The position numbers and the translations under genes were made by a program. From positions 19,671-83,670 of the forward strand of contig CAYMNK010000002.1 of the NCBI GenBank assembly GCA_964391805.1: DNA of 64,000 nucleotides. Direction: 5' to 3'. Shown piece by piece: positions 23,943-64,000 of the stretch. This stretch comes from an uncultured Christensenellaceae bacterium (lineage in GTDB: Bacteria > Bacillota > Clostridia > Christensenellales > CAG-1252). The notes under the pieces are model-generated. The model searched no databases and was not told the origin of the DNA. It saw nothing but the letters and a program-made list of their open reading frames with translations. Each line of letters opens with the position of its first letter. Positions within the stretch are counted from its first letter, which is position 1.

Positions 23943-26900
23943 CTATTCGGTATCTATTGTTTCGTCATCCGTTTTGTTATCGACTTCTATCAATTTTATA
24001 TCGTCAAAGTCGACGTCAAGTTCGTCAATGGATAACTCATTGGGGTTGACAATCGGCTTTTCTACGGTATTGACCGGTTTATATGCATCGCTCGTATCCC
24101 TCACTATTTTACGGAAGTTTACAGCTTTATTTCCGTTGCGTTTTTTGCGCCTCGAGGTTCCTGCCATTACGATAGACAATACGGCAACAAATACAAGCAC
24201 TACAAATCCAATAATTACGTAGTATGGCCAAACCTCTTTGGTACAGAGCATTATATAGTTAAATTCGTCGTCCGTAACAATTATGGTGCCCTCACCTACC
24301 TCAACTTCGAGCAATTCATAGGAACCGTCACTTCTAATCGCAACCGCATAAATCGGTACGTTAATCAAACTATCGTCAACCGATAATTCAACCGTAATTT
24401 CCTTAGTCGGCTGTTTACCGTTATCGCTTGTCAGCACGAACATTTGCTTATTATTGAGAAGCATTGCTTTTACTACAAGATATGAATTATCCTGTTTAAC
24501 CGAATCGTCCTCTGCCAAAACCTTATAAGTTATATTGTTTTCGGGGAATACGACGGTTAATTTACTCACTTCGGTAATTATTTCGAAGTTTGAATCCTCT
24601 TCGTCCCCCGAATAGGTAGGTGCTATATTATTAGTACCCTCTTTAGGATTATTCAGTATTACCGTATCGAATTTTACCGATAATTTACTCAATATTTCAT
24701 CGGAAACGGTATTACCATCTCTATCCTTGAAAACCAATTCACCTATTATGGTTGAACCGTTCTTAACGTAAGTTTTTTCTTTGATAGATACATGCAATTC
24801 AAACTTTTCTATCACAAACTCCACGCCGTCGGGATTTTCGACGGTTGCATTATTTCGGATAATTACGTTGAAATATTCGGTTACGACTTTTCCGCTTTTA
24901 TCCTCTGTAATATAGATTTTATCGGAGTTATTAAGATCGATTTTATATGTACCCACATCTTCGCCCGCCTCTCTTATCGCCGACGAATCCGCTCTTAGAG
25001 AATAACCCTCAGGCAACGGATACTCATCTATCTCTTTTACCGCAATGATCGGATCTATGCTAAGATAGGTTTTCTTAATGCTATCATCGGCTAATACCAA
25101 AACCACATTAGTTTTAATAACGGTATAGTATGAAGTACCGCGCGAAGAAACGATATAATTATCCGTTACATTCTTTCCGTCGCCGTCATTAATTCTAATA
25201 TTTCCCAATGTAATCTTGTATTTAGCAAAAACCGTAGTTTCGGTGTTTGCTACCTGTTCTAAACCAAATCCACCCGATAGATAGAAACCGTCGTTAAGGA
25301 TATAATCCTTAAAAAGTCCGTTATTATCCGCTTTTATCGAATATCTCTTAACATCTGCGCTCAATGCGTATAACGCACTAAAATCATCGGTATATTTGGC
25401 GTTTTCACAGTCGATTGGAGTAATAAAGATTTCTTTTTTGTTAATTGTGAAACTTTGCTTAATGTAAGTAATCCTATAATTTGAGGATATATCCGCACCG
25501 CTACTATCGATAACGGCTATATTACTCAAATCTATTGCGTAACTTCCGACATCGTCAACAGACTTTTTACTCTCTCTTATGGGGCTATTAGCACCGTCAT
25601 ATTTGAGACTATCACCCTGAATTAACGAACCGCTAACGACTTCGCAGACCATTATAGGATCAACTTCGCCGTAATACTTGGACAAACCGTCGGTGACGCT
25701 AACCGTAATGGCACGACGTGTAATAGCATAGAACGAATTACTGTTATCGAGATTAATTTCGAAACAGTCCGATAGTAGCACTTTTTGTCCACTTGAAAGA
25801 CTAATTTCGGTATCTGCAACGGCAAGACTTCCTAAAATAATTCTATAAGAACCTACTTTATTTACACCAGCACCGCCTTCACGAGCAAGCATACCGGTAA
25901 ATACTTCATTACCTTGATAAAGAGATGACAGCAACTCATCCGAATATGTATATGTCAAATTATCGGCATCCTTATAGAACGGATCGAATTCACGCGTAAA
26001 TGAAGACGGAATAACTGTAATAATCTTCTTATCGATATTAGCATAAACGTCTTCAAACACCACATTATAACGTGAATAAACCGAATTAAGTTTATCCTTA
26101 TATGTATCGTTTAAATCACTTATTTGATCCAAAATGTATAGATATGCGCTCTTATCGTCCGACAAATCGCATATTTGAGGTAATTTTATACGCTTGTCAC
26201 CAATCAAACTGTATAGAGATACATGCGTTTTACCCGTCGAGACGGTATCGAATTCGGCAACGATATTACCGAAAAGTGCTTTAATTTCGTCAACAATGCC
26301 GTCGACCAAACTTCCGTCATCGATAACGTTAATTGACAAGTTGATTTTAATAGAAGCGCTTGAAGTATTGTCAAATACTTTATCCAATGCATTTATTCCG
26401 CTAACCGAAATATTTGACTGTTTTATACTAAATTCGATAAAACGTCCCTCTTTAATCATAGAATCGGTCAAAATCCCCATGGAATCGGTTAAACTTAAAC
26501 CGAATCTATCCGAATAGACAGTTGCATCACTATAACTATAGGGCAATTCTCCATCGAGAACTCTATAATCATAAAGTGTTCTTAAAAAGACTAATTCGAC
26601 CGCATACTCTCCGACTTCGGTAGGAATAGCCGTCATTCTCGTATACTTTCCGTCAACCTTGGTATAGTAACGAATGGCATAATCAACGTTTTTTATCAAA
26701 TTGACCGAAACGGAATTGTCCAATGCATTAAAGAAATCTAATGTATATACTAATTCCTTACCGAAATACGAATAATTGTATTTTTCTAAACCGGCATTGA
26801 TGTTTTTATTACCGTCGTTGAAGTTCCAACCAAGTTGCACAGGCTCGTTAATTGAGTAATAGTACTTCGCCGTTGTCTCGGAGTTTATGAACTCGTTCGA

Positions 26901-30617: not shown

Positions 30618-30750
30618 ATTCACTCCCCGCAAATTGAAAATGGATACAATTTGCATAGTAATATATTTTATTTTAACACGAGCAAGCAATTTTTGCAATA
30701 AAGAAGTAAAATAAATAATATATATTTATATTAAATATTTAATAAGATAT

Positions 30751-30772
30751 AAAAAAAGCCCCGTTTTGGAGC
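30751..30772 (-). terminator. Intrinsic terminator of the major pilin gene
   Basis: Minus strand: GCTCC-AAAAC-GGGGC followed by T7, 7 nt after the pilin stop. Confidence 0.65.
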
Positions 30773-30778
30773 CGAAAA

Positions 30779-31282
30779 TTATGAAACAGGAACGTCGTTT
30801 TTATACAAAACGCCCTCTTTATAAGACCAAAGGTTGCCTTCCTTGAGATAATATAGAAGATCGAGTCGCCACTCAGCAGAACCCGAAATAGAATTACCAG
30901 ACTCATCTTTAGGTACATAACGGCGAAATACAATGTAATAACCATCATTTTTATCAGAGCTTTCCGTTGCGGACGGTGCTCTATACGTTTCATTATTCGA
31001 ATACTGCTCACACGATTTTACACTGTCACCCAAAACCGATTGACAAGCCTCGTATAGCGAACCGTATGTGCTAAATCCCGAGTTCTTCTCAACCAAAACA
31101 GACTGAACCGAGTTATACGCCGTTTCAATTGCAGTTTGCTGAGCCTTTTCATTGGCTCTCTTCGTGAAAAAAGATGCACTTATACCTACAAGTGTACACA
31201 ATATTGCCAAAATTGCTATAGAAACCACAAGCTCCACCAATGTGAAACCTCTTCGATTTGACATTTTTTTCACAGACTTCAT
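30779..31282 (-). CDS. Type IV major pilin (prepilin, 167 aa)
   Basis: MKSVKKMSNRRG|FTLVELVVSIAILAILCTLVGISASFF shows the canonical prepilin leader, Gly-1/Phe+1/Glu+5 and a hydrophobic alpha1-N. A Cys pair sits in the head (EACQSVLGDSVKSCEQ). The track ORF start at 31465 adds 61 unsupported residues. Confidence 0.88.
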   Translation of the reverse strand: MKSVKKMSNRRGFTLVELVVSIAILAILCTLVGISASFFTKRANEKAQQTAIETAYNSVQSVLVEKNSGFSTYGSLYEACQSVLGDSVKSCEQYSNNETYRAPSATESSDKNDGYYIVFRRYVPKDESGNSISGSAEWRLDLLYYLKEGNLWSYKEGVLYKNDVPVS

Positions 31283-31288
31283 AAAATT

Positions 31289-31318
31289 ATTATACATTTT
31301 AAGGATATCTTTTGTCAA
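31289..31318 (-). promoter_or_regulatory. Consensus promoter TTGACA-18-TATAAT, 6 nt upstream of the pilin ATG
   Basis: Minus strand: TTGACA (31318-31313), 18-nt spacer, TATAAT (31294-31289), AATTTT, then ATG 31282. Confidence 0.65.
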
Positions 31319-31337
31319 CGTTGTTAAAAATAAATAT

Positions 31338-32039
31338 ATGAAACTTAATGAAACATTACTATCCATAGTATTTCTTATACTTATGTTAATAGGCGGTATT
31401 CCAAAAAATGCAATTACAACAGTCGAAACGGAACCGCTCGAATCAATTGATGAAAATACCGACACTTGTAACGATACTATTATAGATTATTATAGCGAAG
31501 ACATTAACAATAATACATTGTTCGAGATATTCGGAAACACAAAGATAATACCCGACGGGGAATTAAATATCAACCTATTATTGGAATCCACAGAAATAAT
31601 AAAAATCGAAGAATTCGCCCTTCCTTATAACAATCTTGGCTATGTGATACAAGAGATTATCTATCATAAGGCAAAAATCGATATTGACGGCAAAGTCACA
31701 AGTGTGGAAGTTCAAGGGACAAAAGAGAGAGCAAAACTAACTTTTACTCTGACAGTTGACCTTCACAAAAAGAACTTTCTAACTAAACTAATAGGAATAG
31801 ACGATTCCGAATTGACGGCGACAATAGAACTCGATACCGATTTAATAAATAAGTCGGTTAATTATACGATAACGGCAAACGAAATCAGCGTTTCGACATT
31901 AATAAGCAATATCGCATGTAAATATGTTTTCGGCGCAAACGATACCGAAGAATTAGTCAAGACGATTACAAATAAACTCTTTTGGGGAATAGGAACGGCA
32001 AGCGAGTTTGGGGATACGGAGATAATATATAATAAATGA
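31338..32039 (+). CDS. Secreted hypothetical protein (233 aa), divergent from the pilin gene
   Basis: Start set to ATG 31338 (MKLNETLLSIVFLILMLIGGIPKNAITT, signal-like). The upstream part of track ORF 31152.. overlaps the pilin gene antisense. No family recognised. Confidence 0.6.
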   Translation: MKLNETLLSIVFLILMLIGGIPKNAITTVETEPLESIDENTDTCNDTIIDYYSEDINNNTLFEIFGNTKIIPDGELNINLLLESTEIIKIEEFALPYNNLGYVIQEIIYHKAKIDIDGKVTSVEVQGTKERAKLTFTLTVDLHKKNFLTKLIGIDDSELTATIELDTDLINKSVNYTITANEISVSTLISNIACKYVFGANDTEELVKTITNKLFWGIGTASEFGDTEIIYNK

Positions 32040-32040
32040 T

Positions 32041-32289: not shown

Positions 32290-32337
32290 ATATTAGAAAA
32301 ACTGATACAATATCATAAGCTTATCGTTACCGTCCGC

Positions 32338-32421: not shown

Positions 32422-32494
32422 TGACTTTTGTAATATATTATTATACTTTTCGCAATTTTTTTTTGCTTTTTTTGTGCTTTTTTCGCAATATTAT

Positions 32495-34168
32495 TTACAC
32501 TAATGTAAATACGGTGCGAACGTATTCCTCTACCGAAGTATCGCCTTCTTTGATGCGTTTACGGAGGTTTTCATCCATAAACTCCATTCCGTGAGCGGAC
32601 GCATACGCACGAATTTCGTCTGTACTTGCGTTTTTGGTAATCATTTGTCTAAGCTCAGTATTAAGTTCAAGCACCTCGTGAACGGCAAAACGTCCGGAAT
32701 ATCCGGTATAGTTACAAGATGAACAGCCTACAGGGAAATATGCTTGATCGATATCGTTTGAATTAATGAGTTTTTTCTCGTCTAAACTGAGTTGTTTAAG
32801 TTTCTTACACTTAGGACACAGTTTCTTTACCAATCTTTGAGCTAATACGCCGTTAACCGCCGCGGCGGTAAGGTAAGGTGCGATTCCCATATCGATAAGA
32901 CGGGCGATTGTTGCACATGCGTCATTGGTGTGCAAGGTGGACAATACCAAGTGACCGGTAATAGCCGCTCTCATGGCAATTTCCGCAGTTTCGTAGTCAC
33001 GAATCTCACCGACCATTACTATATCGGGGTCTTGACGAAGTATAGATCTAAGAGCAGTTGCAAAGGTCATACCCGCTTTTTCGTTGATTTGAACTTGATT
33101 GATGCCCATAACGCGTTTTTCGACAGGGTCCTCTACTGTGGTGATATTATGGGTAGGTTTGTTGAGTTGACTTAAAACGGTGTATAGCGTGGTAGATTTA
33201 CCGCTTCCGGTAGGTCCTGTAACGAGTACTACTCCGTTGGGGGAATTACAAATATGATCGAACACTTTGAAGTTTTCTTCGGTCATACCGAGTTCTTTTA
33301 ATCCTATCTGCTTACCTAAGGAAGTACCGAGTAAACGCAAAACGGCTTTTTCACCGTATACGGTAGGCAATGTAGATACACGAATATCGATGGTCACGCC
33401 TTCGAAGGTATAGTCGAATCTACCATCTAACGGAATACGCTTTTCGGCAATATTCATATTGGACAATATCTTCAAACGAGTAATCAACGAACGATGGGTA
33501 GAAGGAGTAAGTCTCATATACTCTTGTAAATCACCGTCCAATCTCATTCTTATAATAACTACGTCCTTGAACGGCTCAATATGGATATCCGATGCTTTAC
33601 GCAAATACGCTTGTTGAACAAGGGTGTTCAGCAACTTAACTATAGGTGCACTGTCTACACGCGAATCTATATCGTTGGTTTGGTTAGAATCTTGCTCTTC
33701 GTCCTCTAATTCGACCGCAATATTTTGCGCGCTTATATTGGCATAATACTTTTCAATGGCATCCTCTATAGATTTCTTGGTGGCAAGGGTGTAAAAAACA
33801 TCTCTACCCGATGAAGCTTTTACATCGAGTTCAATCTCCATATTGGTAGGATCTCTCGTGATTATCTCGAGTCTACCGTCCTCTCTGATCTTATAAGGGA
33901 TAATGTTATGCTTCCTTGCTATCTTTTCGGGAACAAGCTTGATAACATCGCTATCCGATATAAAAATATTACCTTCTATAACTTGCAACCCCATTCTTTC
34001 GCCCAAGGCACTCAAAATATTGATTTCGGGAGTTACGTTCATAGAGATTAGCGTTTCGGATATAGACATACGTGGATTTTGTTCGTTCAATTCACGAGCC
34101 TGTTTGAGTTGTTCGGGAGTTACGAAACCCTTTTGAAGTAGTATTTGACCAAATTTTAGTTTACTCAT
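32495..34168 (-). CDS. pilB: Type IV pilus assembly ATPase PilB (GspE family)
   Basis: Walker A GPTGSGKSTT, Asp/His boxes, Walker B DPDIVMVGEIRD, tetracysteine CPKCKK...CSSCNYTGYSGR, and a GspE-N-type N-terminal domain. Confidence 0.95.
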   Translation of the reverse strand: MSKLKFGQILLQKGFVTPEQLKQARELNEQNPRMSISETLISMNVTPEINILSALGERMGLQVIEGNIFISDSDVIKLVPEKIARKHNIIPYKIREDGRLEIITRDPTNMEIELDVKASSGRDVFYTLATKKSIEDAIEKYYANISAQNIAVELEDEEQDSNQTNDIDSRVDSAPIVKLLNTLVQQAYLRKASDIHIEPFKDVVIIRMRLDGDLQEYMRLTPSTHRSLITRLKILSNMNIAEKRIPLDGRFDYTFEGVTIDIRVSTLPTVYGEKAVLRLLGTSLGKQIGLKELGMTEENFKVFDHICNSPNGVVLVTGPTGSGKSTTLYTVLSQLNKPTHNITTVEDPVEKRVMGINQVQINEKAGMTFATALRSILRQDPDIVMVGEIRDYETAEIAMRAAITGHLVLSTLHTNDACATIARLIDMGIAPYLTAAAVNGVLAQRLVKKLCPKCKKLKQLSLDEKKLINSNDIDQAYFPVGCSSCNYTGYSGRFAVHEVLELNTELRQMITKNASTDEIRAYASAHGMEFMDENLRKRIKEGDTSVEEYVRTVFTLV

Positions 34169-34199
34169 ATTATCTCCGTATTTTGCCGTTTATTTTATA

Positions 34200-35704: not shown

Positions 35705-36097
35705 TTATTCCTCATCCTCGTTTTCGGAAATGTCGTAATACACTACCTTGATGTCTTTACCGTCGTTAATCACTATGCCTGCGCGAAAGTCGTGGTCCTT
35801 GGGTGTCAGTCGCGTAGAACCGTCATCGATATCAAATTCAACAGTTATAGGCAAACCGTCTATATAATAACTTTTACTGCTTTCGTCATCTATCGAATCT
35901 CTTTCGGTTGCAAGTATTCCCGCAGCATCGGCGGAAGCTTGATCCAATTTTTGCGATTTCGAAACAAAAGTAAAGCCTTGTTGAAATAGTACAAGCATAG
36001 ATGAACACATTATACCGATTATCGCAATCGCTACCACGCATTCCAATAGGGTGAAGCCCCTCTTATTTCGTTTTAGTTTTTTAAAAAAGTTTTTCAT
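35705..36097 (-). CDS. Type IV minor pilin (130 aa)
   Basis: MKNFFKKLKRNKRG|FTLLECVVAIAIIGIMCSSMLVLF. GAGGTGA SD. Confidence 0.85.
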   Translation of the reverse strand: MKNFFKKLKRNKRGFTLLECVVAIAIIGIMCSSMLVLFQQGFTFVSKSQKLDQASADAAGILATERDSIDDESSKSYYIDGLPITVEFDIDDGSTRLTPKDHDFRAGIVINDGKDIKVVYYDISENEDEE

Positions 36098-47174: not shown

Positions 47175-47203
47175 ATTTTATTATATAATTATATATTTGT
47201 CAA
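47175..47203 (-). promoter_or_regulatory. Promoter TTGACA-17-TAAAAT upstream of pilC
   Basis: Minus strand: TTGACA (47203-47198), 17-nt spacer, TAAAAT (47180-47175). Lies in the 112-nt gap after the LRR giant. Confidence 0.6.
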
Positions 47204-53200: not shown

Positions 53201-56200
53201 ATCGCACTATCGGGATCGATAATTATGTTTTTGATAAACAATGCGTTTTCAAAAGCGCCTATACCTATAGAGGTAAGTTGTTCACCTAAAACAAGCGTTG
53301 AAACATTACTGTTTTCATATCCGTACATCGCATAAGGTAAAATACTCGTCACTCCGTTAGGAATGGTCAAAGTATCTATCGAATTGGGATTGATTGCAGA
53401 CGAAAGTACAGCTACAAGTTCAATACCGTTATGTACTAACGCAGTATAAATAGGTTTACCGTTGCCCGAATTGTAGCTAACGAGCGAATATCCATAAGAA
53501 TTATTGATTTCGCCACTAAACGATTCGAGCGATTTCACTCCTGCAAAGGCACCGGATGCGATGTATTCTATAGAATTCGTAAGCTCAAAGGTTTTAGCGG
53601 TAGTCGTTGCAAGTACGGCATAAATGCTAATCGATTCGTCTAAGCCTTCGTCATAATTATTTGTGATATATTTAAGTCCGCTTACATTATTCAATTTAAA
53701 GTTATTATTAGCGCCTCTAAATATCACCTCATTTAATACGATGGTTCCGTCGGTAACGGTGTAGTCGGATTCGCTGAGTATGTCGTTTATAACTGCCTCG
53801 GACAGCACTTCTTTATCGATATCGGTAAATGTACCGACAAATACGTATTCACCGAAAGTGGTGAGATCTTCGGGCAAACTTACCGTCAATAGTTTATCTG
53901 CATGCGAAAATGCTCCGTCCCCTATAGCGGTTACCTTTTTACCGTCAATATATCTCGGCACTACAAGTTTAAGTGCGTTCTTTCCGCTGTCCGTTAATCC
54001 GCTTATCATTATTTCGTTACCGTTAACGGTTTCATAAGTGAAATAACTTATAGGCGAATAATATATAGTCGTTGATTTATTAGCCTTAACATATGCTTCG
54101 ATATTGGTTACGCCTAAGGGTGCATAGAAGGTAACAGAATCGCCCTTTCCATTAGCCATAAAGGCTTTACCCGATATAGAAATATCATTTTCGACATATA
54201 CGCTCAAGGTGTCGGACTTAACGGCAAATGCATTATTACCAACCGATGTAATACTTCTCTGTAAAACAACCTCTGTTATATATGTACCCGAGAAACTGTT
54301 ATCGGCTATATAACGTACAGATGACGGAATGGATATTGCGGTAATTTTCTTCTTGAGATTAACGCTGACCTTGGATAAGTCTATACCTACTATTTCCGCT
54401 CCGTCTACAAATCTCGGTATCAACAGTTCGGTATCGTTCAGCAACGCGTTTCCGTCGATTCCGCTCAATATTGCCTCGTTATCGCTTATCTTAGTTATAA
54501 CCATATTCTTAGCGTAATCTGTATTAATTACAGGTACCGATGTCTTTTGAATAAAGGCATCGAGGTTGTCGCTGTTTCCGTAAATAACTACATTGGCGTT
54601 ACTACCCTTAAATACGCCGTTACCTATGGTAAACGTGCGTGCGCTTTCTACATATACGCCGACGATAGATGTATCGTAAGCAAATACCGTATTGCCTAAC
54701 GTAATGGCTCCGTCTCCTAAGAAGATAACGGTTTCTAAATTACTGAGTTCGGCAAAGGCGTTATTACCGATACTTCTGACGCTTTCGGGAATTATTACCT
54801 TAGTTATCGAACGGATTCCGTAGAATACCGCAGAATCGATACAAACTACCTTAGCTTTAACCGCACTTCCGTCGCTGAGTTTAACAGTTAAATATTCGGG
54901 TATTATCAAGGTAGACTTGATCTTATCTTTATTAACTGCAATGATGGTCGCTTCATATACACCCGAAGAAGACATCGTTACTTCAACTATAAAGGCATCT
55001 TCGGATACGTATGCTCTAAACGGAATTCCGTGAAGTTTCGCATAACTTTCTACCAAACTATTCTCTATACCGTATACCGTGAACGAATCGTTGTAATCGG
55101 TAAATACCGTTACATCTCCGTCTTCGACATATCCTAATGAGGTAGGTTCGCTACGGAATATTACCTGAACAAGATCGCTCATTCCGTCAAATGCGCCCGC
55201 TTCCACCCTCTTTAATGTGGTCGGAAGTATTATCTTGGTAACCTTGACACTACTACTCGAAACATACCTAAATGCACCGCTCTTAATCGTGCTGATGCCT
55301 TCGGGCAATACTACTGTACCTAATTCGCCACCTTCTCCACCTAAACCATAGTATGCATAAAGGATAGATCCGTCCTTACTTAACAGCATGTTATCGGTCG
55401 AATCGTCTTCGAAACTTTGGTTATTGACAGATACCGATACGTTAATTGCATTGGTTATTGCACCGCTACTAACAGTGTAACTTCTATCCGAGAACATGTT
55501 ACCGTCAATAGTCATTACGTTATCGCCAATAGTTACATTCTTGATAACCTTACATCCGCTCAAAACATTTGCTCCAATATGCAATACGCTATTACCGAAA
55601 GTTATGGATTGCAATCTGCTTGCATCGAGGAAGGCTTCATCCGATACTTCGGTAATGTTACCGCTTATCGAAATAGATTGAATGGTCGTATTCGCGAAAC
55701 CTCTGTTTGCGATCTCTATAACCGGGTAACTTATTCCGTTAATATACGCATAATCGGGAAGTTTTACATCGGTGTTATAGGCAGTTTGTTTCCAAATACT
55801 GTCACTTACGTCTTTTATGCTTATGGTAGCACCCAAAGTTTTACCGAGATATACGTTTGAAATGGTATATAAATCGATCTTTTCGGTGAGTTCTTCGACT
55901 TCACCTTTGATGAGCGAATAATAAACTTTACCGTCGGACAATCTTTCGTATGCATATAAGCATTTTTGTGTACCCGACAAGATGTTGGCAAATCTACCGA
56001 TATATAATTCATCGGGTAATACGTTGCGCTTACCGCTTATCGACATACTGTCACTTACGGTGGCTTCCTTACCGAGTGCGTAAACTACGCCGTCAAAAAC
56101 TTCTACCGATACAAACTCGTTGTCGTCGCTAAGGTAATAATATTCGTTATTCAAGTACTTATCGTATGACAATAAATCTTGTTTTAGCGATACCAATGCG

Positions 56201-59200
56201 TTGTCAGATTTACGAATATAATATTCGAAACCGTCCGATTCTAACAATGTTACCTTTATACTCAAATAAATGTTGTTATTAACTTCAGCCTCGCTATTAC
56301 CTACAATTTGTTCAAAGCAAACGGCATCCTCGTTATAGCGGTAAGGTATGTTGTTGCGAACATATACGAATTCAACCGTCGAAGAATCTCCGTTACGATT
56401 AATTGCAAGATAACGTCTATATAAGTCCTTGCTGTCGACGGTGCTCAAATAATCGTTTCTATAGTATACCGCTCCATTGACGAGAGTTACCTCTATCAAG
56501 GTATTTCTATTGGCAACAGGATAGATTACATAGTATTCTTCCTCTATCTCGAAAATATCGTCGTCGAGATCGATTACATCGAAATTGCCGTCCTTATATT
56601 GGTAATAAGTACTTCCGCCGATAGTTTGATATACTCTATAATCAACCTTATTGAATATATCGTCATCCACTATACCAAAGTAACCGTTGGTTTCTGTCCA
56701 AGACGAAGTCTTCTCGGAATAGGTGTAATATACGCCGTTTAGCATATAAATTTGTCCGTCGGTGAGGTCATCCGCTCTCAGATCGAAATCGAAATAATCG
56801 ACAGGGATATATGCATACTTATTGACAAGTTCTCCGTCGTTGATGTTGCAATCGATGGGATAATATATCTCGACGTTCGCCAACAACGATGCATTCTTGA
56901 TTGTGATGCTTTCCGCGTTAATATACAACTTGGATAGACTATTCAATAAAATATATCCTTCGTCGTCGCAAAGTATCTTGGCATCGAGTTCGGTGATAGC
57001 CTTAGGTAATACCAATGTTTTGATATTATCACAGCCTATAAATGCACCCTTTGCTATATCGGTTGCCTTATCGGGCGCGAATGTCTCGCTATTGACGTCG
57101 TAGCACAACAGCAATACACCGTCACCGCTGTAAATCGCTCCGTCTTGAGCGATATATTGAATCTTACCGCTATTGAAGGAATTGTCAATTACTACATTGT
57201 TAAGGTTAGTACATCCTTCAAAGACGGTGTAAACCTCATAAACTTCGTTTAGGTTATCGTCCATAGAGGATACACCTATTACAGAGTTGCGCATTAGAGA
57301 CATTACTACCGTTGCCAATGAAGTGCACTTACTGAAGGCATATTCTCCTATACGCTGTACCTTGCCGAGGTTGGCGATAGATAGCGATGTACAGTTGCGG
57401 AATGCACCCTCGCCGATTATTATGCCGTAGCCCGATGCATAACTTGCGCCGTTTTCTATCGTGACGCTTCGAATTGTAGTATTGCCGGCAAAAGCTCTTT
57501 CCTCTATTTCGAGGACGGGAAGGCCGCCTATGGTTGCAGGAATAATTAGATCTTTATGATTGCCAACAGAGCAATTGGTGTGGGACTTTAATCCCGTAAT
57601 CTTGACGTAATCTCCGTAGGCAGTGCCTAAAACCACCTCATAATCGAAACATTCCTTATATTTATCGGCATCACTCAAGTTCTCGATGTAACTCGGCTTA
57701 GTGCTATAATTATTGCGGAAATAGGTTATCATCGCACTTGCGGAACTATGGATTTCCACAAAATCAATGGTACCTCTTATTCCGTCAAGCAAGCCTACAC
57801 CCAACTCGGTATCGGGATTACAGAAACGCAACTCGCTCAAACCGCTACATCCGCGGAACGCGTAATCACCTATGCTTTCAACATTATTACCGAGCATTAA
57901 CGAGCCTAACGAGTAACAATCTGCAAATGCGCTTTGTTCTATCGTTTTCAACGATTCGGGCAAATAAATATATGTTAGCGACGAGCAGTCTTCGAATGCG
58001 TGTTCGCCTATGCTCGTGACATAATTACCGAGTATCACAGTAGTAAGTGTGGTGTTACCCATAAAGGCAAGATCACCTATTCTTACTACGTTCTTACCGT
58101 CGATTCTATCAGGTATTCTTATCTTGGTATACTCATTGCCTTCGTCGTGCATACCGAGTATTTCTACTCCGCCTACCACATTAGCAGTAATAAATACCTT
58201 ACCAACCGTGATGGAAGTGACGTGAGCCTTAGATACAGCGTTTTGTGATTTGATATTATTGTAATCGCATGCGTAAACGGTTACGCCCGATGCGTTATCG
58301 TCAAATGCGCCGTCTTCGATAGTCGTACTATTGTTGGTGGAATTCAACAGATATACCGTTTTCAGTCTTTCACAGCCGGTAAAGGCATCCTTTGCAATAA
58401 CGAAGTTATCGGTATCGCCGTCGATTGATATGCTTATCAAATCGGTACCGCTGAACGCACCTTCCGATATTTCAACCACTTTTCTTCCGTTAATGGTAGA
58501 AGGAATGGTTATGTATTTATGAGATGTGTTGCAATGATGATTGACTAATCCTACGATAGCGACTTTATCGGTTCCGATAGCCTTGATCTCCAAGCAACCC
58601 CAATAGGTGCCCACATTGAAGGCAATACCCGCCTCGTCACAGTAAGTTTCGAGTTCGGTTGCGGAAATTCCATATACATTGAGTATATCGGTATCGCAAT
58701 CAAGGAATATATCTACACCTAAATCGGTGATCATACCCTCAATATATACCTGAGATAGGTTGCTACATCCGTAGAACGCTTGATCGCCTATACTTGTTAT
58801 AGATGACGGAATCGTGACGGTTTCAAGCGTCTTATTGCCCGAGAAGGCAAGATCGAGAATAGCCGTTACCGTCATTCCGTTAATGAATTCGGGAATGTCT
58901 ATCTTGGTTTCGTTTTCCGCATTCTTTAATCCCTTAATTCTGATTTCGTTGCCGTTAATAATTTCATAGTTAAACTTACTAACCGCAGAGAATCTCTTAT
59001 AGGTCAAAGGTATATTGTGATCGTTATATACATACGAATCGGCATATTCGCTGACTATATTGCTTTCGCCCTTTTCGAGAGGTGCGTAAATATAGATTTC
59101 TGCATTGTTTCCGAATATCGAGGCACCGATACCGCCACTTACAGAGTAATCGAGTCGACTTGGTGTGATATTAGATAAATATACAATATCGGATGCCGAT

Positions 59201-62200
59201 TGTAGTGTGTCACCCGTATATAATACCAACGAATAGTAATAGGAGCCGTCATCTAAACGACTATCTACACGTGCCGACTTATAGTCCATTCCGGTTAGAT
59301 TTTCTGTGGTATATGTGCCATTCGAATATACACTGTTTTTAGCGGAACCTAATAAAATTTCGCTATAATCATAGTTTGACGCATTCGAATCTGTTTCTAC
59401 AACATATCCTACAAGGTTACGCTCGTCTTGAGCTATATAGTTATCGCTATAAACGCTGTATGTGCATGTGTTGGTCGAATAATCGACTACAATTTTTGCT
59501 ACAGGCACCTGCAACACCCTCGTTTGTATTACTTCACCACCCAAATCGTCACTCACGGTAATGGGGTTGCCGTTACTATCAGTTCTCATTAGGTTGCGAT
59601 TCTCAAGAACGGTGTAGATTATGCTACCGCCGTTGAGATAGGTCAACTCGTTGGGTATATAACTTACCTTATATTCGTTCGAATTACTCGGCAATAAGGA
59701 CGATACAGTCTGCTCTATAATATCCCTATCGGATAAACCGTTTGCTATGCCGTTTTCGAAGTAAATAGACTTGAGCGGACAACCGTCGAATGCATACGAA
59801 CCGATATAGGTACAGTCTTCGGGAATATTGACATAGGTCAATTTTTCACAATTTGCGAAGGCGTATTCTCCTATACTCGTCACGTTATTAAGGTCTATTT
59901 CCTCGAGCACAGTGTTATACGCAAATGCATAGTTACCTATATGAGTTATATGGATAGGCATCATCTCATAGGTGCTATAATTCAATATCTCGTCGGGTAT
60001 CTTGAATGAGGTTACCGTATTGGTCGATAGGTAACTTATCAACGTATAGGTCGGTAATCCGTCTTTATCGTATATAGTATTACCGTCTGCATCAAGGTTA
60101 ACCTCGAGAATTGCTCCACCTGCGTATGCGTAATTCGGATCGTTATGATCTATGGTATAGATATAGAACTTATCCGAATATGAACCAACTTGAGCAAGAT
60201 TCGATATATTGATGAAGGAACCTTCCTCTATGGTGTGAATCATAGACTGCAATCTAAGTTGAGTAATTCCGCTACAACCTTCGAGTGCGAATGCTCTAAA
60301 AGTAGTAATTGCATTCAATGTACCGGTATCGTCCTTAGATTTATTACCGCTGAGTACTGAATATAAAGTACTGTCTATTATTGATCCGTTCTTAACGGTC
60401 AACAGTGAAGAATTATAGTAATATGATGCTACTCCGTCCTTTTCCTTGATGACTATGTCAAGAGATGTGTCGCTGAACGGATCGGTTATCGTGCTTGCAG
60501 GCACAGTATGTATTGCCGTCTTAATCGTTACCACTACGAAGTCTTCTTGATAGTTAAACGTAGCTTTATAGGAGTTCTTAACGTTATTTACATAGGTATT
60601 ATAAGTGAGTACGACTTCGCCTTTAATGTCGGGATTTAATTCGCTTAAGCCCGATACTAAGGTTATTGTTCCGCTCTTATCGTCATAAGAGAAGTACTTG
60701 TTGAATATATCTGCATTTTCAAACGATATCGTGCTTTGTTCTCCGTCGGCAGTATATTCAAGTTCGGCATTTTTAAATCCCGATATTACAAGTCTATCGG
60801 CAAACTGTATAGTTACACTGTTTTCCGACGTCGAACCCCAGTAATTCCACGTTATGAACTGGCTGTATACCTTATATGAATAATCGAAGGTGATTGTTTG
60901 GATGTATTCGCCAATATCCAAATTTCTTAGCGCTTCGGCATCGACGTAGAATGCATAGATATCACCAGATTTTTCTATCTTGGTTACGGTAATATTGGTG
61001 ATGCTCTTAGATTTATCTACAACCTCCGTTAAATTGAGTTTAATCGTTCCATCAATTATTGTACGTTCGCTTTCCCACTTAGACTTATCCGAATCGGTTT
61101 CGTCTTTTTCGGGGAAGGATGTTGAGCCGATGTAAACATATTCTTCATCGTTCTTTATTATCGTTTCGGGGAATAGTATGTTTTTATCGTTCGAATCGAA
61201 GGTAAAGGATGTTTGTCCCTCGGAATCATTTTCCTTAACCGGCAACATCGTTTCGATTTCGTAAAGTATTCCGTTAGAACCTACTACATAATTTTCGTTT
61301 TTACCGCTCAATACAAGGTTTGGACAATCGGCAAAAGCACCAAATCCCAATTCCACGATTCCGCTTATATCAAAGGTTTTAATGCCTGTATTTGCGAATA
61401 CCTTTTCACCGATGCGTAACAAAGGAAGTGATGTAATTGCATCGTTCTTTACCGACGGATATAGCGAATTGTAGAATGCTCTCTCGCCTAACTCATATAT
61501 CTCGGCAGGCATTCCGGAAATGGTTACCGTATCAAAATACATTATCTCGCTTAACGAAGTGGTATTTTCGAAGAAAGATGCAGGGATCGATCTAATATCC
61601 TTAGATAATCTTATGCTAACAAGATTAGAACAGTTTTTGAATAAGCCTTCCGCATCGTTAACATTGGTAACGGTATCGGGTAATACGAAACTTCTTAACG
61701 AATGACAAGATGCGAATGCATATTTGCCTACGCTCTTAACGTTAGGTAATACCACGCTTGTCAATGAAATACAGTTATAGAAAGCGTATTCCCCTATCGT
61801 TCTAACCGACGACGGAATAGTTACCGAAGTAAGGTTGGTACAATTCTCAAAGAATCTGTCGCCGATAGATGTTAAATAATCGGGCAATTTAACGCTCGTA
61901 ATTACGGTATTACCTTTGAGCAAATTGTCCGCCAATTGGGTAACCGGCTTACCGTCTATCGAACTTGGAATGATAATATTGGAATGATTACCGTTACATG
62001 TGTGATTCTTTAGACTTGTAATGATAATACTATTGCTGTCTATGTAGGTGACACCGTTCGAAGTGTATTTGACATATTCATATTCGAAGCAGTTAAAGCT
62101 TGTTCCGTTGTTATAAATGCTTTCATCGAAACAACTCTCTAAATATCCGCCCGAAGGACCGAATACGGCTATTCCGTAACCATCCTTATCGTAAGTGTTG

Positions 62201-64000
62201 GCGAATACATTACTGCCTAATAATGCTATCTCTCCAACGAAATATGCTTCATATAACGAAGTACAACCGTTGAACGCATTGTCACCTATTTCCTTTACCG
62301 TTTGAGGGAATACTATTCTCTCAAGGTTACGGATGTTCATAAACGCAGTCTTTTCTATGGTTGCGATTCCGTCTGGAATTATTATGCTTGTTGCGTTAAT
62401 ACCCGCAAACGCTTCTTGACCTATTACGGTAACACGACGGTCATTGATGTATTGAGGTATGATGACAACCATATTAGATTCGTCTTTATCTCCTACGGGT
62501 TGATTGTAAGCAACAATCTTAACGGTATCATCATCGAGATACTCGATAGTATACAAAGATGATACAATATTATTTTCCTTGAATGAATCGGAACTGAATA
62601 ATTCACCCGAATTGCTCGACAACAAATCGGTATATCTGCCATCGGCTTCCTCAAAGACTGCGTCGGTAAGATATTCGTTGATAAAGCTGAGATATAGATT
62701 GCTCAAATATTCTCCGTTCTTCTTGGGTCCAAATATTATCAAGTTGACACTTGCTCCGTCAAAGACGTGCTTTCCTATCTCGAGATCTTTATTAAAGGTT
62801 ATCGAGGTGAGGTTTGTTGCAGACTTAAACGCACCGTCATTTATCTTCAATACCGTCTTAGGTACTGTAAACGTTAAAGCAGAATTGCTCGATAAATAGG
62901 TGTGCAATACCGTTTGATTAATATTATACAAAGCACCGTTTTCAAACATGTAGTGCTCGTTCTTATCCAATACGATCTCGGTAAGATTACCGCAATCGGC
63001 AAAAGCACCTTCTCCGATGAAGGTAACGCTCGAAGGTATTTCAATTCTTACAATGCTGTCTAATCCGCTAAATGCATCCTTGGCAATTCCGGTAACATAT
63101 TTAATCTTTCCATTGGATGAAATAATCGTTGACGGAATGACAATATTGTTATGATTAACAGTGCAAGCGTGATTCTTGATACCGGTGATGATAAGTTCGT
63201 TACCGTTAACAGCACTCGTCTCGAAACAACAAGCATATTTTACATCTTCAACATTAAATCCTAAGTTGTCAAGTGTCTTATATAGAGGTAACGATTCTAC
63301 ATCCATTTCCTTAGAGATAGCATCAACATAAACTTCACAAGACGAGGTATCTACGCCTGTAAATACATCGGTGTAAATGCTGATGTCGTTGCCAAGGAAA
63401 TATATACTATCCAATTCTTGACATTGATAGAAAGCATTCTTGAATATCTTGGTAACATTTTCACCGATTACAACACTGCGTAGATTTTCAACGCCTAAGA
63501 AAGACGCTACGCCTAACGTCGTTACCGTACGCGGTATGTAAAGAGTTTGGATATCTTGATTGTATTGGAACGCTCTTTCGGCAATTACCGTTACCTTCAA
63601 ATTGTTAATAAACATTGGAATAACGACGTCTTTCATACCCGAAAGGCTGGCAATATTGTTCCAATTGACGATGCATATCGTACCGTCTTCCATATTGTCT
63701 GTGCTTGTAACGAAATAATTCAACGGAGTGGCTTGACGGAATTGAACATTGTTTTCTATACAGAACAATTCGAGTTCGTTACCGATATACAAACTGCTCA
63801 CTTGTAAATCTTCGTCGGTACCGATAAAAGCATCCCTACCAACAGTTGCAACTTCACCGAGTACTTGGACGTCATATAGATTCTCGCAATCTTTGAACGC
63901 TTTATCGCTTATAGTCTTGATACCACTACCGATAGTTACGCTTTGGAGATTCTTTGCACCCGCAAATGCCGAAGGCCATATAGAAATAACGCTATCAGGA
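47251..64000 (-). CDS. Giant BspA-type leucine-rich-repeat (LRR_5-like) protein, at least 5,581 aa; N-terminus beyond window end
   Basis: Hundreds of ~23-aa units such as IPSSVTSIGDQAFYGCSNLSQVYI. The track start at 63801 is an internal GTG. I translated 63802-64000 in frame: ..IPDSVISIWPSAFAGAKNLQSVTIGSGIKTISDKAFKDCENLYDVQVLGEVATVGRDAFIGTDEDLQV-SSLYIG.. has no stop and continues the LRR pattern. Confidence 0.9.
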   Translation of the reverse strand, partial: PDSVISIWPSAFAGAKNLQSVTIGSGIKTISDKAFKDCENLYDVQVLGEVATVGRDAFIGTDEDLQVSSLYIGNELELFCIENNVQFRQATPLNYFVTSTDNMEDGTICIVNWNNIASLSGMKDVVIPMFINNLKVTVIAERAFQYNQDIQTLYIPRTVTTLGVASFLGVENLRSVVIGENVTKIFKNAFYQCQELDSIYFLGNDISIYTDVFTGVDTSSCEVYVDAISKEMDVESLPLYKTLDNLGFNVEDVKYACCFETSAVNGNELIITGIKNHACTVNHNNIVIPSTIISSNGKIKYVTGIAKDAFSGLDSIVRIEIPSSVTFIGEGAFADCGNLTEIVLDKNEHYMFENGALYNINQTVLHTYLSSNSALTFTVPKTVLKINDGAFKSATNLTSITFNKDLEIGKHVFDGASVNLIIFGPKKNGEYLSNLYLSFINEYLTDAVFEEADGRYTDLLSSNSGELFSSDSFKENNIVSSLYTIEYLDDDTVKIVAYNQPVGDKDESNMVVIIPQYINDRRVTVIGQEAFAGINATSIIIPDGIATIEKTAFMNIRNLERIVFPQTVKEIGDNAFNGCTSLYEAYFVGEIALLGSNVFANTYDKDGYGIAVFGPSGGYLESCFDESIYNNGTSFNCFEYEYVKYTSNGVTYIDSNSIIITSLKNHTCNGNHSNIIIPSSIDGKPVTQLADNLLKGNTVITSVKLPDYLTSIGDRFFENCTNLTSVTIPSSVRTIGEYAFYNCISLTSVVLPNVKSVGKYAFASCHSLRSFVLPDTVTNVNDAEGLFKNCSNLVSIRLSKDIRSIPASFFENTTSLSEIMYFDTVTISGMPAEIYELGERAFYNSLYPSVKNDAITSLPLLRIGEKVFANTGIKTFDISGIVELGFGAFADCPNLVLSGKNENYVVGSNGILYEIETMLPVKENDSEGQTSFTFDSNDKNILFPETIIKNDEEYVYIGSTSFPEKDETDSDKSKWESERTIIDGTIKLNLTEVVDKSKSITNITVTKIEKSGDIYAFYVDAEALRNLDIGEYIQTITFDYSYKVYSQFITWNYWGSTSENSVTIQFADRLVISGFKNAELEYTADGEQSTISFENADIFNKYFSYDDKSGTITLVSGLSELNPDIKGEVVLTYNTYVNNVKNSYKATFNYQEDFVVVTIKTAIHTVPASTITDPFSDTSLDIVIKEKDGVASYYYNSSLLTVKNGSIIDSTLYSVLSGNKSKDDTGTLNAITTFRAFALEGCSGITQLRLQSMIHTIEEGSFINISNLAQVGSYSDKFYIYTIDHNDPNYAYAGGAILEVNLDADGNTIYDKDGLPTYTLISYLSTNTVTSFKIPDEILNYSTYEMMPIHITHIGNYAFAYNTVLEEIDLNNVTSIGEYAFANCEKLTYVNIPEDCTYIGSYAFDGCPLKSIYFENGIANGLSDRDIIEQTVSSLLPSNSNEYKVSYIPNELTYLNGGSIIYTVLENRNLMRTDSNGNPITVSDDLGGEVIQTRVLQVPVAKIVVDYSTNTCTYSVYSDNYIAQDERNLVGYVVETDSNASNYDYSEILLGSAKNSVYSNGTYTTENLTGMDYKSARVDSRLDDGSYYYSLVLYTGDTLQSASDIVYLSNITPSRLDYSVSGGIGASIFGNNAEIYIYAPLEKGESNIVSEYADSYVYNDHNIPLTYKRFSAVSKFNYEIINGNEIRIKGLKNAENETKIDIPEFINGMTVTAILDLAFSGNKTLETVTIPSSITSIGDQAFYGCSNLSQVYIEGMITDLGVDIFLDCDTDILNVYGISATELETYCDEAGIAFNVGTYWGCLEIKAIGTDKVAIVGLVNHHCNTSHKYITIPSTINGRKVVEISEGAFSGTDLISISIDGDTDNFVIAKDAFTGCERLKTVYLLNSTNNSTTIEDGAFDDNASGVTVYACDYNNIKSQNAVSKAHVTSITVGKVFITANVVGGVEILGMHDEGNEYTKIRIPDRIDGKNVVRIGDLAFMGNTTLTTVILGNYVTSIGEHAFEDCSSLTYIYLPESLKTIEQSAFADCYSLGSLMLGNNVESIGDYAFRGCSGLSELRFCNPDTELGVGLLDGIRGTIDFVEIHSSASAMITYFRNNYSTKPSYIENLSDADKYKECFDYEVVLGTAYGDYVKITGLKSHTNCSVGNHKDLIIPATIGGLPVLEIEERAFAGNTTIRSVTIENGASYASGYGIIIGEGAFRNCTSLSIANLGKVQRIGEYAFSKCTSLATVVMSLMRNSVIGVSSMDDNLNEVYEVYTVFEGCTNLNNVVIDNSFNSGKIQYIAQDGAIYSGDGVLLLCYDVNSETFAPDKATDIAKGAFIGCDNIKTLVLPKAITELDAKILCDDEGYILLNSLSKLYINAESITIKNASLLANVEIYYPIDCNINDGELVNKYAYIPVDYFDFDLRADDLTDGQIYMLNGVYYTYSEKTSSWTETNGYFGIVDDDIFNKVDYRVYQTIGGSTYYQYKDGNFDVIDLDDDIFEIEEEYYVIYPVANRNTLIEVTLVNGAVYYRNDYLSTVDSKDLYRRYLAINRNGDSSTVEFVYVRNNIPYRYNEDAVCFEQIVGNSEAEVNNNIYLSIKVTLLESDGFEYYIRKSDNALVSLKQDLLSYDKYLNNEYYYLSDDNEFVSVEVFDGVVYALGKEATVSDSMSISGKRNVLPDELYIGRFANILSGTQKCLYAYERLSDGKVYYSLIKGEVEELTEKIDLYTISNVYLGKTLGATISIKDVSDSIWKQTAYNTDVKLPDYAYINGISYPVIEIANRGFANTTIQSISISGNITEVSDEAFLDASRLQSITFGNSVLHIGANVLSGCKVIKNVTIGDNVMTIDGNMFSDRSYTVSSGAITNAINVSVSVNNQSFEDDSTDNMLLSKDGSILYAYYGLGGEGGELGTVVLPEGISTIKSGAFRYVSSSSVKVTKIILPTTLKRVEAGAFDGMSDLVQVIFRSEPTSLGYVEDGDVTVFTDYNDSFTVYGIENSLVESYAKLHGIPFRAYVSEDAFIVEVTMSSSGVYEATIIAVNKDKIKSTLIIPEYLTVKLSDGSAVKAKVVCIDSAVFYGIRSITKVIIPESVRSIGNNAFAELSNLETVIFLGDGAITLGNTVFAYDTSIVGVYVESARTFTIGNGVFKGSNANVVIYGNSDNLDAFIQKTSVPVINTDYAKNMVITKISDNEAILSGIDGNALLNDTELLIPRFVDGAEIVGIDLSKVSVNLKKKITAISIPSSVRYIADNSFSGTYITEVVLQRSITSVGNNAFAVKSDTLSVYVENDISISGKAFMANGKGDSVTFYAPLGVTNIEAYVKANKSTTIYYSPISYFTYETVNGNEIMISGLTDSGKNALKLVVPRYIDGKKVTAIGDGAFSHADKLLTVSLPEDLTTFGEYVFVGTFTDIDKEVLSEAVINDILSESDYTVTDGTIVLNEVIFRGANNNFKLNNVSGLKYITNNYDEGLDESISIYAVLATTTAKTFELTNSIEYIASGAFAGVKSLESFSGEINNSYGYSLVSYNSGNGKPIYTALVHNGIELVAVLSSAINPNSIDTLTIPNGVTSILPYAMYGYENSNVSTLVLGEQLTSIGIGAFENALFIKNIIIDPDSAIYSIEERTFYGCESLEEMPLLNSLKSIGANAFGNSGLKSINNLPELLFTISDGAFMGCDSLVTVTIPENVHTIGEYAFASCGSLEEIIIPESVTTIGKGAFMGTAITSITLPLSITEIADSLFEGADNLEGIVVQGVIVKIGNSAFKGTSALRELPTALTESVKELGEYAFADSGLISVSFGIGLKEIPAHAFENCKYLTEITLSSAVTAIHDYAFNGCNGLFDIENKIVSIKDGDNIVTVNDSNGAVDEYLITTERNKNIYLIVDGLQIRVVGGNITVNDKTVACIRNEIEGEIVTTAVYENLYIVYKSGVLSVSGGKEMNLSNGLTYVQFGINVRSIGDYSFANCALTTVLISDGIESVGDYAFKDNKNLESVQIGGNLQNLGKSVFSGTINLKLINVSSRNTTFVNMDDGVLFEREIGSDGVYTGRVILKVYPAGLIPSGDDRLYKVPSNTIAIESNAFEYSKLITVYIPESVKTIGRDAFMGADSLVNIYFEGDIDINGEDIFNGILPKAYISEDGDFVLLDGEYVKFFNGFYENSEGIYSLMDGKYVLSESGKTKYSKARFVLDNEGDYVSNDGYSFTLDRAHSSVLTRYSIISSELECYSLTNLVIDCPVGSNVYDYCLDKGYNCLPFGTDISSVSVNGVICVQHTAVECFTYTEGEYITITGLSNNCECNNHDTLVIPTYINGKEVREISANAFANAGIRVFALGRYVYTLGEGFLYGNEIERVYVASISNIDYDPDDELSTMYSTNSVFSVIGEVIDGLSYSALVGNVDGFNTLVLYTTSSTLTEFVIPTDIEQIGYGAFAYNRYLKNVIMHDGIVNIPDYAFAYDTALVGTEGALYLGNNVTSIGAGAFEGDTALTAVYGSEKLAEIDNKAFASCASIVEIAVLNDDGTLSYSFGNMIFDKDNSILYTVKDEKVLLHTFLSTSKLKNNSIVILPSIVNGINVLGIDNYAFYGVSTDIRTVVVPYESTNSSISIGEGAFDNCNVKTIHFESDVYSTDSDKRVFVDGAFVYLPQGAQLIDNLNNFAIGYKEVSVKSDLVYREKNGKIEIIGLSDVLNSRQIVIPYYLEGKQVSSISKDAFSGNSAIETIELLDTITSLPIGVFEGCYNLVSVDLSETHIEVIPENVFASCNSLVSVKLPNTVTEIANGAFKNTALRSIPTSDALISIGSEAFRDSNISEVVFTGSIKNIGAFAFADCDGITEISIPSSVESIGEGAFDNCNSLLYVHFQDDVLSLPDTSETPLFVLHDNITVKVPYNATKVIAYLEALGYKDSEYIVEHPEEEQNLFLYTPSTCFEFVVTENGIEIVGMKKSASHDYENCQYCSEAVYFPDEIDGQTVIGVGEEFSTKVSSKIKTIEFNSQLRYIEDNALYGMTSLTNVVFGSRNQSNLEYIGKYAFVGTSITSVSIPSIDLDYIDDYAFSGVALTSLKLGSVKRIGAYAFANVEFGGENGKEVLKVNDGVLQNIDIVFADGAIIDSYAFAKNTLLGSSNSNFQISGGLGEVGEGAFYATDLSSVSGNDFVSYSIKTVGDYAFANTKIGFVASNVEYIGAYAYARGLSVLSGSIQTDIPFDKSLKHTAIYDNVVTLNNVTLLSICEIGAGVFSGTSIAKLSLGKDLTDFSAPITLENGDFVLGAIENTPKLKNIKVDSANAKYFVLNGALFVNQDNNVTKLIAYPADILSYCNEISVSEQSSIGVYKTSDGYYQTLGKGKGYVIIGTRAFMNSTINALYLTDFNCIGIESYAFYNVTSLEYVTIGSYVESIGDYAFAGCTGLVDCEGGANCLHRYECELRGSCTGYNAVDFSSASSLSYIGVSAFENCIGLKSLSLRGKNLTVSENAFKGTSISFLIVSAVYSSIRTQSFATVSEVQFISMNKNLELSSNVFASGAKIYYPIAYSTDETDMSNVLSGYEGGVLIPHWNWSHFSIENYVIKQLASVCENHNNRHNGEKILLPLYAVDGNRLTYEADAFTGYTVEQVG

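Follow-up and report, generated by a model that had tools for sequence, protein, structure and literature searches.

We examined a window of 64,000 nucleotides (nt) of DNA from an uncultured Christensenellaceae bacterium (the whole stretch analyzed, part of GenBank contig CAYMNK010000002.1), in which the genes of a type IV pilus (T4P) are flanked and interrupted by three giant open reading frames (ORFs). An earlier note, made from the sequence alone, had set out these ORFs in a minus-strand order running from position 64000 to 23943, had placed one promoter in a 112-nt gap before pilC and a consensus promoter before pilB, and had proposed that filament and giants work as one attachment apparatus. 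Re-reading bore out all of the ORFs, their order, and both promoters. We refer to the three giants as the LRR giant (for its leucine-rich repeats, LRR), the giant pilin (a pilin-like protein of 2,282 amino acids, aa), and the MBG giant (for its MBG_2 domain). The features of the locus are given below, with TM for a transmembrane segment and an arrow for a predicted cleavage site.

47251 to 64000, minus strand: C-terminal part of the LRR giant; 5,582 codons plus stop, 30 LRR_5 stretches
47175 to 47203, minus strand: promoter before pilC, sigma-70 type; TTGACA-17-TAAAAT, 11/12 consensus positions
45963 to 47138, minus strand: pilC, platform protein, 391 aa; T2SSF 185.9 bits in two stretches
45031 to 45951, minus strand: pilM, actin-like assembly protein, 306 aa; PilM_2 27.4 bits (cut-off 27)
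43879 to 45027, minus strand: PilN-like bitopic protein, 382 aa; one TM at residues 29–47, syntenic in all relatives
43005 to 43868, minus strand: PilO-like bitopic protein, 287 aa; one TM at residues 11–29, Cys-rich C-terminus, syntenic in the relatives
36106 to 42954, minus strand: giant pilin-like protein, 2,282 aa; KNKKG↓AAL leader, hydrophobic helix, conserved C-terminal domain
35705 to 36097, minus strand: minor pilin, 130 aa, KRG↓FTLLE; N_methyl 34.1 bits and TIGR02532
35024 to 35704, minus strand: minor pilin, 226 aa, KRG↓FTLVE; N_methyl 33.4 bits and TIGR02532
34265 to 35020, minus strand: pilD, prepilin peptidase, 251 aa; A24_N_bact 114 bits, Peptidase_A24 51.2 bits
34200 to 34228, minus strand: promoter before pilB; TTGACA-17-TATAAT, 12/12 consensus positions
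32495 to 34168, minus strand: pilB, extension ATPase, 557 aa; T2SSE 433.6 bits (cut-off 24.9), MshEN 45 bits
32033 to 32421, no strand assigned: copy of a dispersed intergenic repeat; 75–81% identity to the inverted copy at 23546–23810
31344 to 32039, plus strand: small secreted protein, 231 aa, divergent from the pilin gene; hydrophobic N-terminus
30779 to 31282, minus strand: major pilin, 167-aa pre-protein, RRG↓FTLVE; N_methyl 36.4 bits, TIGR02532 27.9 bits
23943 to 30617, minus strand: tail-anchored MBG giant, 2,224 aa; signal peptide, one MBG_2 domain, C-terminal TM
23546 to 23810, no strand assigned: second long copy of the intergenic repeat, in inverted orientation, just past the 3' end of the MBG giant gene

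The pilus genes proposed in the earlier note were supported by Pfam and NCBIfam, which recovered PilC, PilM, PilD, and PilB together with three N_methyl pilins. For PilM the match was marginal, with TIGR01175 (E = 1.6e-12) below its cut-off and PilM_2 barely at its own. The PilN-like and PilO-like proteins matched no family in Pfam or NCBIfam; each has one N-terminal TM segment, which is the expected topology, and both are syntenic in the relatives. The PilN-like protein begins with DINLF(K/R)AAGG, a motif seen too in the ORFs of relatives, and one that we take to resemble the PilM-binding INLLP-type peptide of PilN. All three canonical pilins carry G↓FTL(V/L)E, and the major pilin has a class III signal peptide (Gly-1, Phe+1, and Glu+5). 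No retraction ATPase PilT was found, with one T2SSE protein only among the window ORFs scanned, and PilT may be encoded elsewhere. The window also holds no secretin, as expected for a monoderm. PilB has an N-terminal MshEN domain, which in other systems binds cyclic di-GMP, and pilus assembly may be under cyclic di-GMP control through this domain. Control by a cyclic di-GMP or other riboswitch was considered separately and rejected, as Rfam finds tRNAs only.

This gene set resembles the T4P of monoderm Clostridia, as found in the primary pil clusters of Clostridioides difficile and Clostridium perfringens. Shared elements are PilB, PilC, PilM, N-like and O-like proteins, and PilD, as well as one major pilin, three minor pilin-like genes, and the lack of a secretin. 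Here, in contrast, the N-like and O-like proteins have grown to 382 and 287 aa and are without a family-model match, the operon is bordered by giants and has a further one inside it, and the window has no pilT.

The genes from pilC to pilD form a tightly packed operon, with gaps of 0–50 nt, and the giant pilin is encoded within it. The pilC ATG lies at 47138, and a gap of 112 nt separates the gene from that of the LRR giant. A further promoter matching the consensus at 12/12 positions precedes the major pilin gene (31318–31289), and this gene is followed by a terminator at 30773–30757. In 5/6 lineages the promoter boxes between the LRR giant and pilC (TTGACA-17-TATAAT-like) have been kept while the flanking sequence diverged, and the pilB promoter has been kept in 4/6. 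Because promoters are conserved at both of these positions, we read the locus as a series of separate transcription units; the pil operon (pilC to pilD), pilB, and the major pilin gene have promoters of their own, and each flanking giant presumably does as well. There is no terminator-like site in the gap between the LRR giant and pilC, and read-through is possible. As a side observation, only a few nucleotides separate the end of the pilin promoter's −10 box (31289) from the first ATG (31282), such that the pilin mRNA may be leaderless or the start may be at the second ATG (31264).

We then considered the giant pilin and its N-terminus. This reads MRIKNLFVKNKKG↓AALTYTMIFLMVLSVIVVSF, with a KNKKG leader and Tyr, not Glu, at +5, and it includes the protein's single hydrophobic or TM segment (residues 20–38). 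The protein has no N_methyl or TIGR02532 match in Pfam or NCBIfam and lacks the class III signature. The description in the earlier note of a pilin-type N-terminus is therefore retained in part; the N-terminus is prepilin-like, but of the GspK/PilX type that lacks Glu5, and departs from the canonical class III signal peptide. When 16 homologs sharing 24–86% identity are aligned, N10, G13, A14, and L16 are invariant. The sequence follows the pattern of capping minor pilins, with a basic leader, Gly at −1, a hydrophobic alpha1-N, and no Glu5. In type IV filaments, the apex subunit has none above it and needs no Glu5, GspK being the classic example, and capping pilins without Glu5 are a known class of type II secretion system (T2SS) pseudopilins. 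Because its N-terminus resembles the capping subunits GspK, PilX, and PilK, we propose that the giant pilin would be cleaved by PilD, after Gly13, and would sit at the filament apex.

Conservation along the giant pilin is uneven. Compared chain-wise with its seven most distant homologs, the window protein shares 49% identity over residues 1–60, 39% over residues 61–310, 20–27% over residues 311–1740, and 50% over the last ~330 residues. Gly, Asn, Ser, and Thr abound in the middle, which has weak bactofilin-type Pfam matches only and is probably a long beta-helical spacer, judging by its composition and these matches. A low-confidence AlphaFold 2 model of residues 1–329 (pLDDT 59.5) placed a helix at 11–47, followed by beta strands and two helices of lesser length, and a model of the C-terminal 543 residues reached pTM 0.67 and pLDDT 60.9. 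Neither gave a Foldseek match in the PDB at E ≤ 0.001, and profile searches of the PDB were also empty. PilX_N appeared below threshold in 4/10 homologs (best E = 0.18). In GspK, a domain is inserted into the pilin beta-sheet (PMC8179133). By analogy, and because both ends of the giant pilin are conserved, one possibility is that it represents a pilin module split by a huge insertion. We also observed Cys-rich, zinc-ribbon-like motifs at residues ~141–170 of the giant pilin (~42445–42535) and in the C-terminus of the PilO-like protein (43005–43140), with the patterns CxxC...C....C and CxCxxC...CxxC, in parts of both proteins predicted to lie outside the membrane. Weak Pfam hints of HypA and of a double zinc ribbon were present in 4/10 homologs.

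The same features could be read differently. The 2,282-aa protein might not be a pilin at all but a signal-anchored, wall-spanning fiber held in the membrane by its N-terminal helix, and its role may then be that of an accessory similar to PilY1 or of a scaffold for the machine. The missing Glu5, the lack of an N_methyl match, and the failure to recover a pilin fold would all agree with such a protein. Even so, we think this quite unlikely. All 16 homologs keep both the basic leader and the Gly-Ala of the predicted cleavage site, which would be superfluous in a plain anchor, capping pilins such as GspK also lack Glu5, and the gene sits with those of the minor pilins, upstream of pilD.

A pilin with a large extra module has precedents. 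Modular pilins have been proposed to lie at the filament tip, where GspK has been described as a subunit (PMC8179133), and for C. difficile a tip complex made up of PilU, PilV, and PilK has been proposed (PMC9556784). With PilB and PilC of Streptococcus sanguinis, CofB of enterotoxigenic Escherichia coli, GspK of T2SS, and PilK of C. difficile, the giant pilin shares an N-terminal pilin segment joined to a large extra module, gene placement with minor pilins and the prepilin peptidase, and an expected role in tip adhesion; with GspK-type capping subunits it shares the missing Glu5. It differs in belonging to a family of 18 proteins, found among 5.8 billion and all 2,009–2,977 aa long, that has no recognizable pilin signature or known adhesion domain. 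The most extreme multi-domain modular pilin named in an InterPro survey is 860 aa (PMC8179133), and surveys of that type would miss the present family because it bears no recognizable pilin signature.

The family is also narrow in its taxonomic range. Among 185,579 species genomes scanned, the C-terminal domain of the giant pilin occurs in 14 species, all of them uncultured Christensenellaceae or Clostridia metagenome-assembled genomes. Named sources of the carrier genomes are goat rumen, buffalo rumen, and roe-deer cecum, and two carriers are Christensenella sp. UBA bins.

The LRR giant is only partly visible. Its frame, 47251–63999, runs without an in-frame stop to the window edge, and the gene is thus cut by the window; the limits given here are those of the frame, as an ORF listing opens at the first GTG, yet the frame is open to the last base. 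The earlier estimate of at least 5,581 aa was right, with 5,582 codons and a stop in view. In contig L005, which has an identical PilC and equal downstream gene sizes, the protein is called at 10,074 aa, and its start would correspond to a site ~13.5 kb past the window edge, with the N-terminus beyond the window. The visible part contains 12 + 18 LRR_5 (BspA-type) stretches in Pfam, scoring 553 and 756 bits, and has weak similarity to a model of the LRR adhesin HupY/LrrG. Its internal repeats are only 23–42% identical to each other, and the array is therefore old and diverged and not an assembly artifact. The 5,582 visible residues include no TM segment and no LPXTG. More broadly, a motif search found no LPXTG in any of the giants and Pfam found no SLH or choline-binding (CW_binding) domain in them, in agreement with what the earlier note had reported.

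BspA-type LRR surface proteins (Pfam LRR_5), which the 30 LRR_5 stretches place the LRR giant alongside, are very common, with 349,090 representatives at E ≤ 0.001 in a library of 1.84 billion proteins. The LRR giant differs from them in its ~10,000 aa, its near-constant length, and the fact that pilC always follows it; the largest of the 150 best BspA-LRR matches in that library is 7,983 aa. With the C-terminal 999 aa as a query, all matches were to unrelated BspA proteins, none above 1,750 aa, and the first 1,200 aa in view, used in a HMMER search, found no ortholog besides one 779-aa fragment. The proteins of ~10,000 aa seem absent from both protein libraries searched. In relatives, the length is nearly constant, with values of 10,074 aa (L005) and 10,138, 9,813, 10,153, 10,122, 9,838, 10,141, and 10,151 aa, despite 33–60% identity among the orthologs tested (L001–L004). 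This constancy may reflect selection or constraint on length.

In the third giant, of 2,224 aa, a signal peptide and, near the C-terminus, a TM (residues 2134–2152) are clear, and the tail anchoring proposed for it in the earlier note is upheld. Its description there as an MBG adhesin depends on a single probable MBG_2 domain (residues ~1637–1724), which against a cut-off of 25 bits falls short in a scan of the full-length protein (22.3 bits) and passes in a scan of the segment alone (29.8 bits). Further YDG and MBG hints are sub-threshold, while the L002 ortholog scores 31.2 bits for YDG, and the first ~1,500 residues have no Pfam match. By its sequence features, the protein is predicted to be a Sec-exported, tail-anchored surface fiber.

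Next, we compared the locus across relatives by reading the neighborhoods of seven homolog contigs (L001–L004, L020, L022, and L023), which represent about seven lineages with giant-pilin identities of 24–60%. On all seven, a giant of 9,813–10,153 aa ends 15–175 nt upstream of pilC, and after it come pilC, pilM, the N-like and O-like genes, a giant pilin of 2,009–2,977 aa, minor pilins, and pilD. Contig L005 repeats the window arrangement. The upstream giant is an LRR protein in all five of the seven contigs that were checked (L001–L004 and L020). In L001–L004, tblastn showed its C-terminal part to be orthologous to the window's LRR giant at 33–60% identity, with pilC 62–84% identical, and Pfam identified BspA LRR_5 in the upstream giants of L002 and of L020, the latter from the most distant clade. 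Among GTDB loci, an LRR C-terminus upstream of pilC was clear in L009 and L010 and weak in L014. The earlier note had named a lack of linkage in close relatives as grounds for refutation, and the linkage held: LRR giant, pil genes, and giant pilin stay adjacent. The invariant core is thus the LRR giant, pilCMNO, the giant pilin, the minor pilins, and pilD, and it has remained together while its proteins diverged to about 25–35% identity and neighboring genes rearranged.

Beyond this core, the locus is more variable. In L001, L002, L004, and L022 there are pilB, the major pilin, the small secreted protein, and an MBG/YDG-type giant (2,188–2,394 aa), and the L023 contig ends just past the small secreted protein with the downstream giant outside view. 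Orthologs of the MBG giant, at 25–45% identity, follow the pilin gene in L001, L002, and L004 and in GTDB loci L011 and L014. In the L003/L009 lineage, pilD is directly followed by a 2,021-aa surface protein with PA and Flg_new (Listeria-Bacteroides repeat) domains, and the locus lacks pilB. The most distant clade has a transglutaminase-like protein where the MBG giant would be. The small secreted protein has no Pfam match, and homologs or positional analogs of it stand beside the pilin gene in relatives. This fast-evolving protein and the pilin are always encoded as a divergently transcribed pair, and the cassette is inverted relative to pilB in several lineages, with L002, L004, L011, L014, and L023 in the orientation opposite to that of L001 and L022. 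An invertible switch around the cassette was considered and rejected, as no inverted repeat flanks the cassette ends in the window. We also noted that in L020 (22742–23888) two divergent pilin genes, of 153 and 201 aa and both with N_methyl, replace the pair of pilin and small secreted protein.

These comparisons bear on one alternative, namely that the three giants are independent surface proteins which happen to be neighbors of a pilus used for motility, DNA uptake, or biofilm, all inherited vertically without coupling. The separate conserved promoters, the sheer abundance of BspA-LRR proteins, and the replaceability of the MBG giant are what this would lead one to expect. We nonetheless find it unlikely, as the LRR giant, the pil operon, and the giant pilin have stayed together while their proteins diverged to 24–33% identity, whereas elsewhere in the locus equal divergence brought inversion of the pilin cassette, loss of pilB from the locus, and replacement of the MBG giant. 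Moreover, the giant pilin is encoded within the operon itself. Because the adjacency of the LRR giant to the pilus genes is conserved, the comparison argues that pilus and LRR giant were selected together, and the arrangement conserved across this small clade points to one inherited attachment module.

A different role for the machine would be export. Here, the pilus-like machine would be a secretion device, similar to a T2SS pseudopilus, that drives the LRR giant, and possibly further giants, across the thick wall, with the giant "pilin" as a piston tip or docking piece. In every locus with the region visible, the LRR giant ends 15–175 nt before pilC, and no anchor is found in its 5,582 visible residues, both of which would suit such a device; in Omnitrophota, giant genes are reported to come after a T2SS-like locus that is conserved and includes genes with class III signal peptides (bioRxiv 10.1101/2023.11.21.568195). 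Against this, the perfect promoter and the terminator of the major pilin gene are what a highly expressed filament subunit should have, and a conserved promoter stands between the LRR giant and pilC. Of the 143 unrelated BspA giants with an initial Met, most (116) carry a conventional hydrophobic signal at the N-terminus, which suggests Sec export and, by analogy, provides a weak prior that the LRR giant is exported by Sec as well. We consider the secretion device clearly improbable. Rather unlikely, too, is a single organelle made up of LRR protein, pilus machine, and giant pilin, in which the filament would be needed to export, extend, or hold the LRR giant and the length near 10,000 aa would act like a ruler or tether.

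Taken together, the account that we regard as probable, based on sequence comparisons, is that of a monoderm T4P with a giant tip pilin, inherited together with giant surface adhesins. This tip-pilin model is better supported than the secretion device, the uncoupled neighbors, or the signal-anchored fiber. All of the support is sequence-based and comes from uncultured organisms. According to the model, a machine of PilB, PilC, PilM, the PilN-like and PilO-like proteins, and PilD would polymerize the 167-aa major pilin. The two small minor pilins would join the 2,282-aa protein in a tip complex that primes assembly. Once the giant pilin had been cleaved, PilB-driven polymerization would lift its stalk and conserved C-terminal domain off the cell as a tip adhesin. 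The LRR giant and the membrane-anchored MBG giant, transcribed from neighboring units, would be surface adhesins, and long-range capture of a putative binding target by the pilus tip would come first, followed by close-range binding through the LRR and MBG giants. Of the single attachment apparatus envisaged in the earlier note, the conserved linkage of LRR giant, pil genes, and giant pilin, and the placement of the giant pilin in the operon, are borne out; for the two flanking giants, cooperation with the pilus is a suggestion.

Several observations weigh against this account. Conserved promoters stand both between the LRR giant and the pil operon and between pilD and pilB, and co-transcription is not required. 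The N-terminus of the LRR giant, and hence its export route and anchor, lies outside the visible sequence, and the MBG-type giant is kept in nearer lineages only, not in distant clades. There is no PilT in the window. The giant pilin has neither an N_methyl nor a TIGR02532 match, and its predicted structures are weak, with no fold or sequence match to any solved pilin.

We also considered the genomic setting of the locus. It adjoins a core region of ylxM-ffh-rimM-trmD-GTPase-rnhB and is therefore taken to be chromosomal, with no obvious mobile element. Recent horizontal acquisition was rejected, since the G+C content matches the flanks, housekeeping genes follow directly, and the locus is kept clade-wide. 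An assembly artifact or pseudogene was likewise rejected, as the ORFs are intact and of similar lengths in many independent assemblies. The repeat DNA of the earlier note is real but is a member of a dispersed, genome-wide repeat family and is not particular to the pilus locus; there are shorter copies at 7086, 7304, 10595, and 16683, and the repeat has no Rfam match. Its two long inverted copies flank the block of small-protein, pilin, and MBG-giant genes. Elsewhere in the window are six clustered tRNA genes (Gly, Arg, His, Gln, Lys, and Leu) at 15355–15951, a separate tRNA-Val at 7425–7500, and, at 4686–6905, a gene for a 739-aa protein with Endonuclease_1 and Big_2 domains that is likely a secreted or surface nuclease.

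Modular pilins and giant genes beside T2SS-like loci are both known already, and the locus is not a new category. Its closest counterpart is found in Omnitrophota (bioRxiv 10.1101/2023.11.21.568195), where very long surface-protein genes also adjoin a machine of the type IV filament family and small class III signal peptide genes are present at the locus, as they are here. The two differ in phylum and envelope, and homologs of the gspD secretin and of rcpC are found at the Omnitrophota locus. Gene order is also reversed, with the giant preceding the machine here, where it is a pure BspA-LRR array and where a giant pilin-like gene lies inside the operon. In the literature searched, Omnitrophota are the only group for which a giant gene is reported to be paired, in conserved fashion, with a type IV filament machine. 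The Christensenellaceae locus would thus be a second, independent pairing, in a monoderm, which makes the function of such pairings testable by comparison. It would also extend the idea of modular pilins to a size ~3 times that of the 860-aa example, and should be of interest to pilus and gut-microbiome specialists.

Christensenellaceae are a heritable, health-associated group of the gut and rumen whose surface biology is little known. Christensenella is known to flocculate with methanogens (PMC7002349). If LRR giant, pilus, and giant pilin did form one organelle, a monoderm would have a system that displays giant adhesins by means of its filament, and this might mediate cell–cell attachment in gut and rumen consortia. 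More generally, the module of pilus and giants is a candidate for the attachment of these bacteria to partners, particles, or host.

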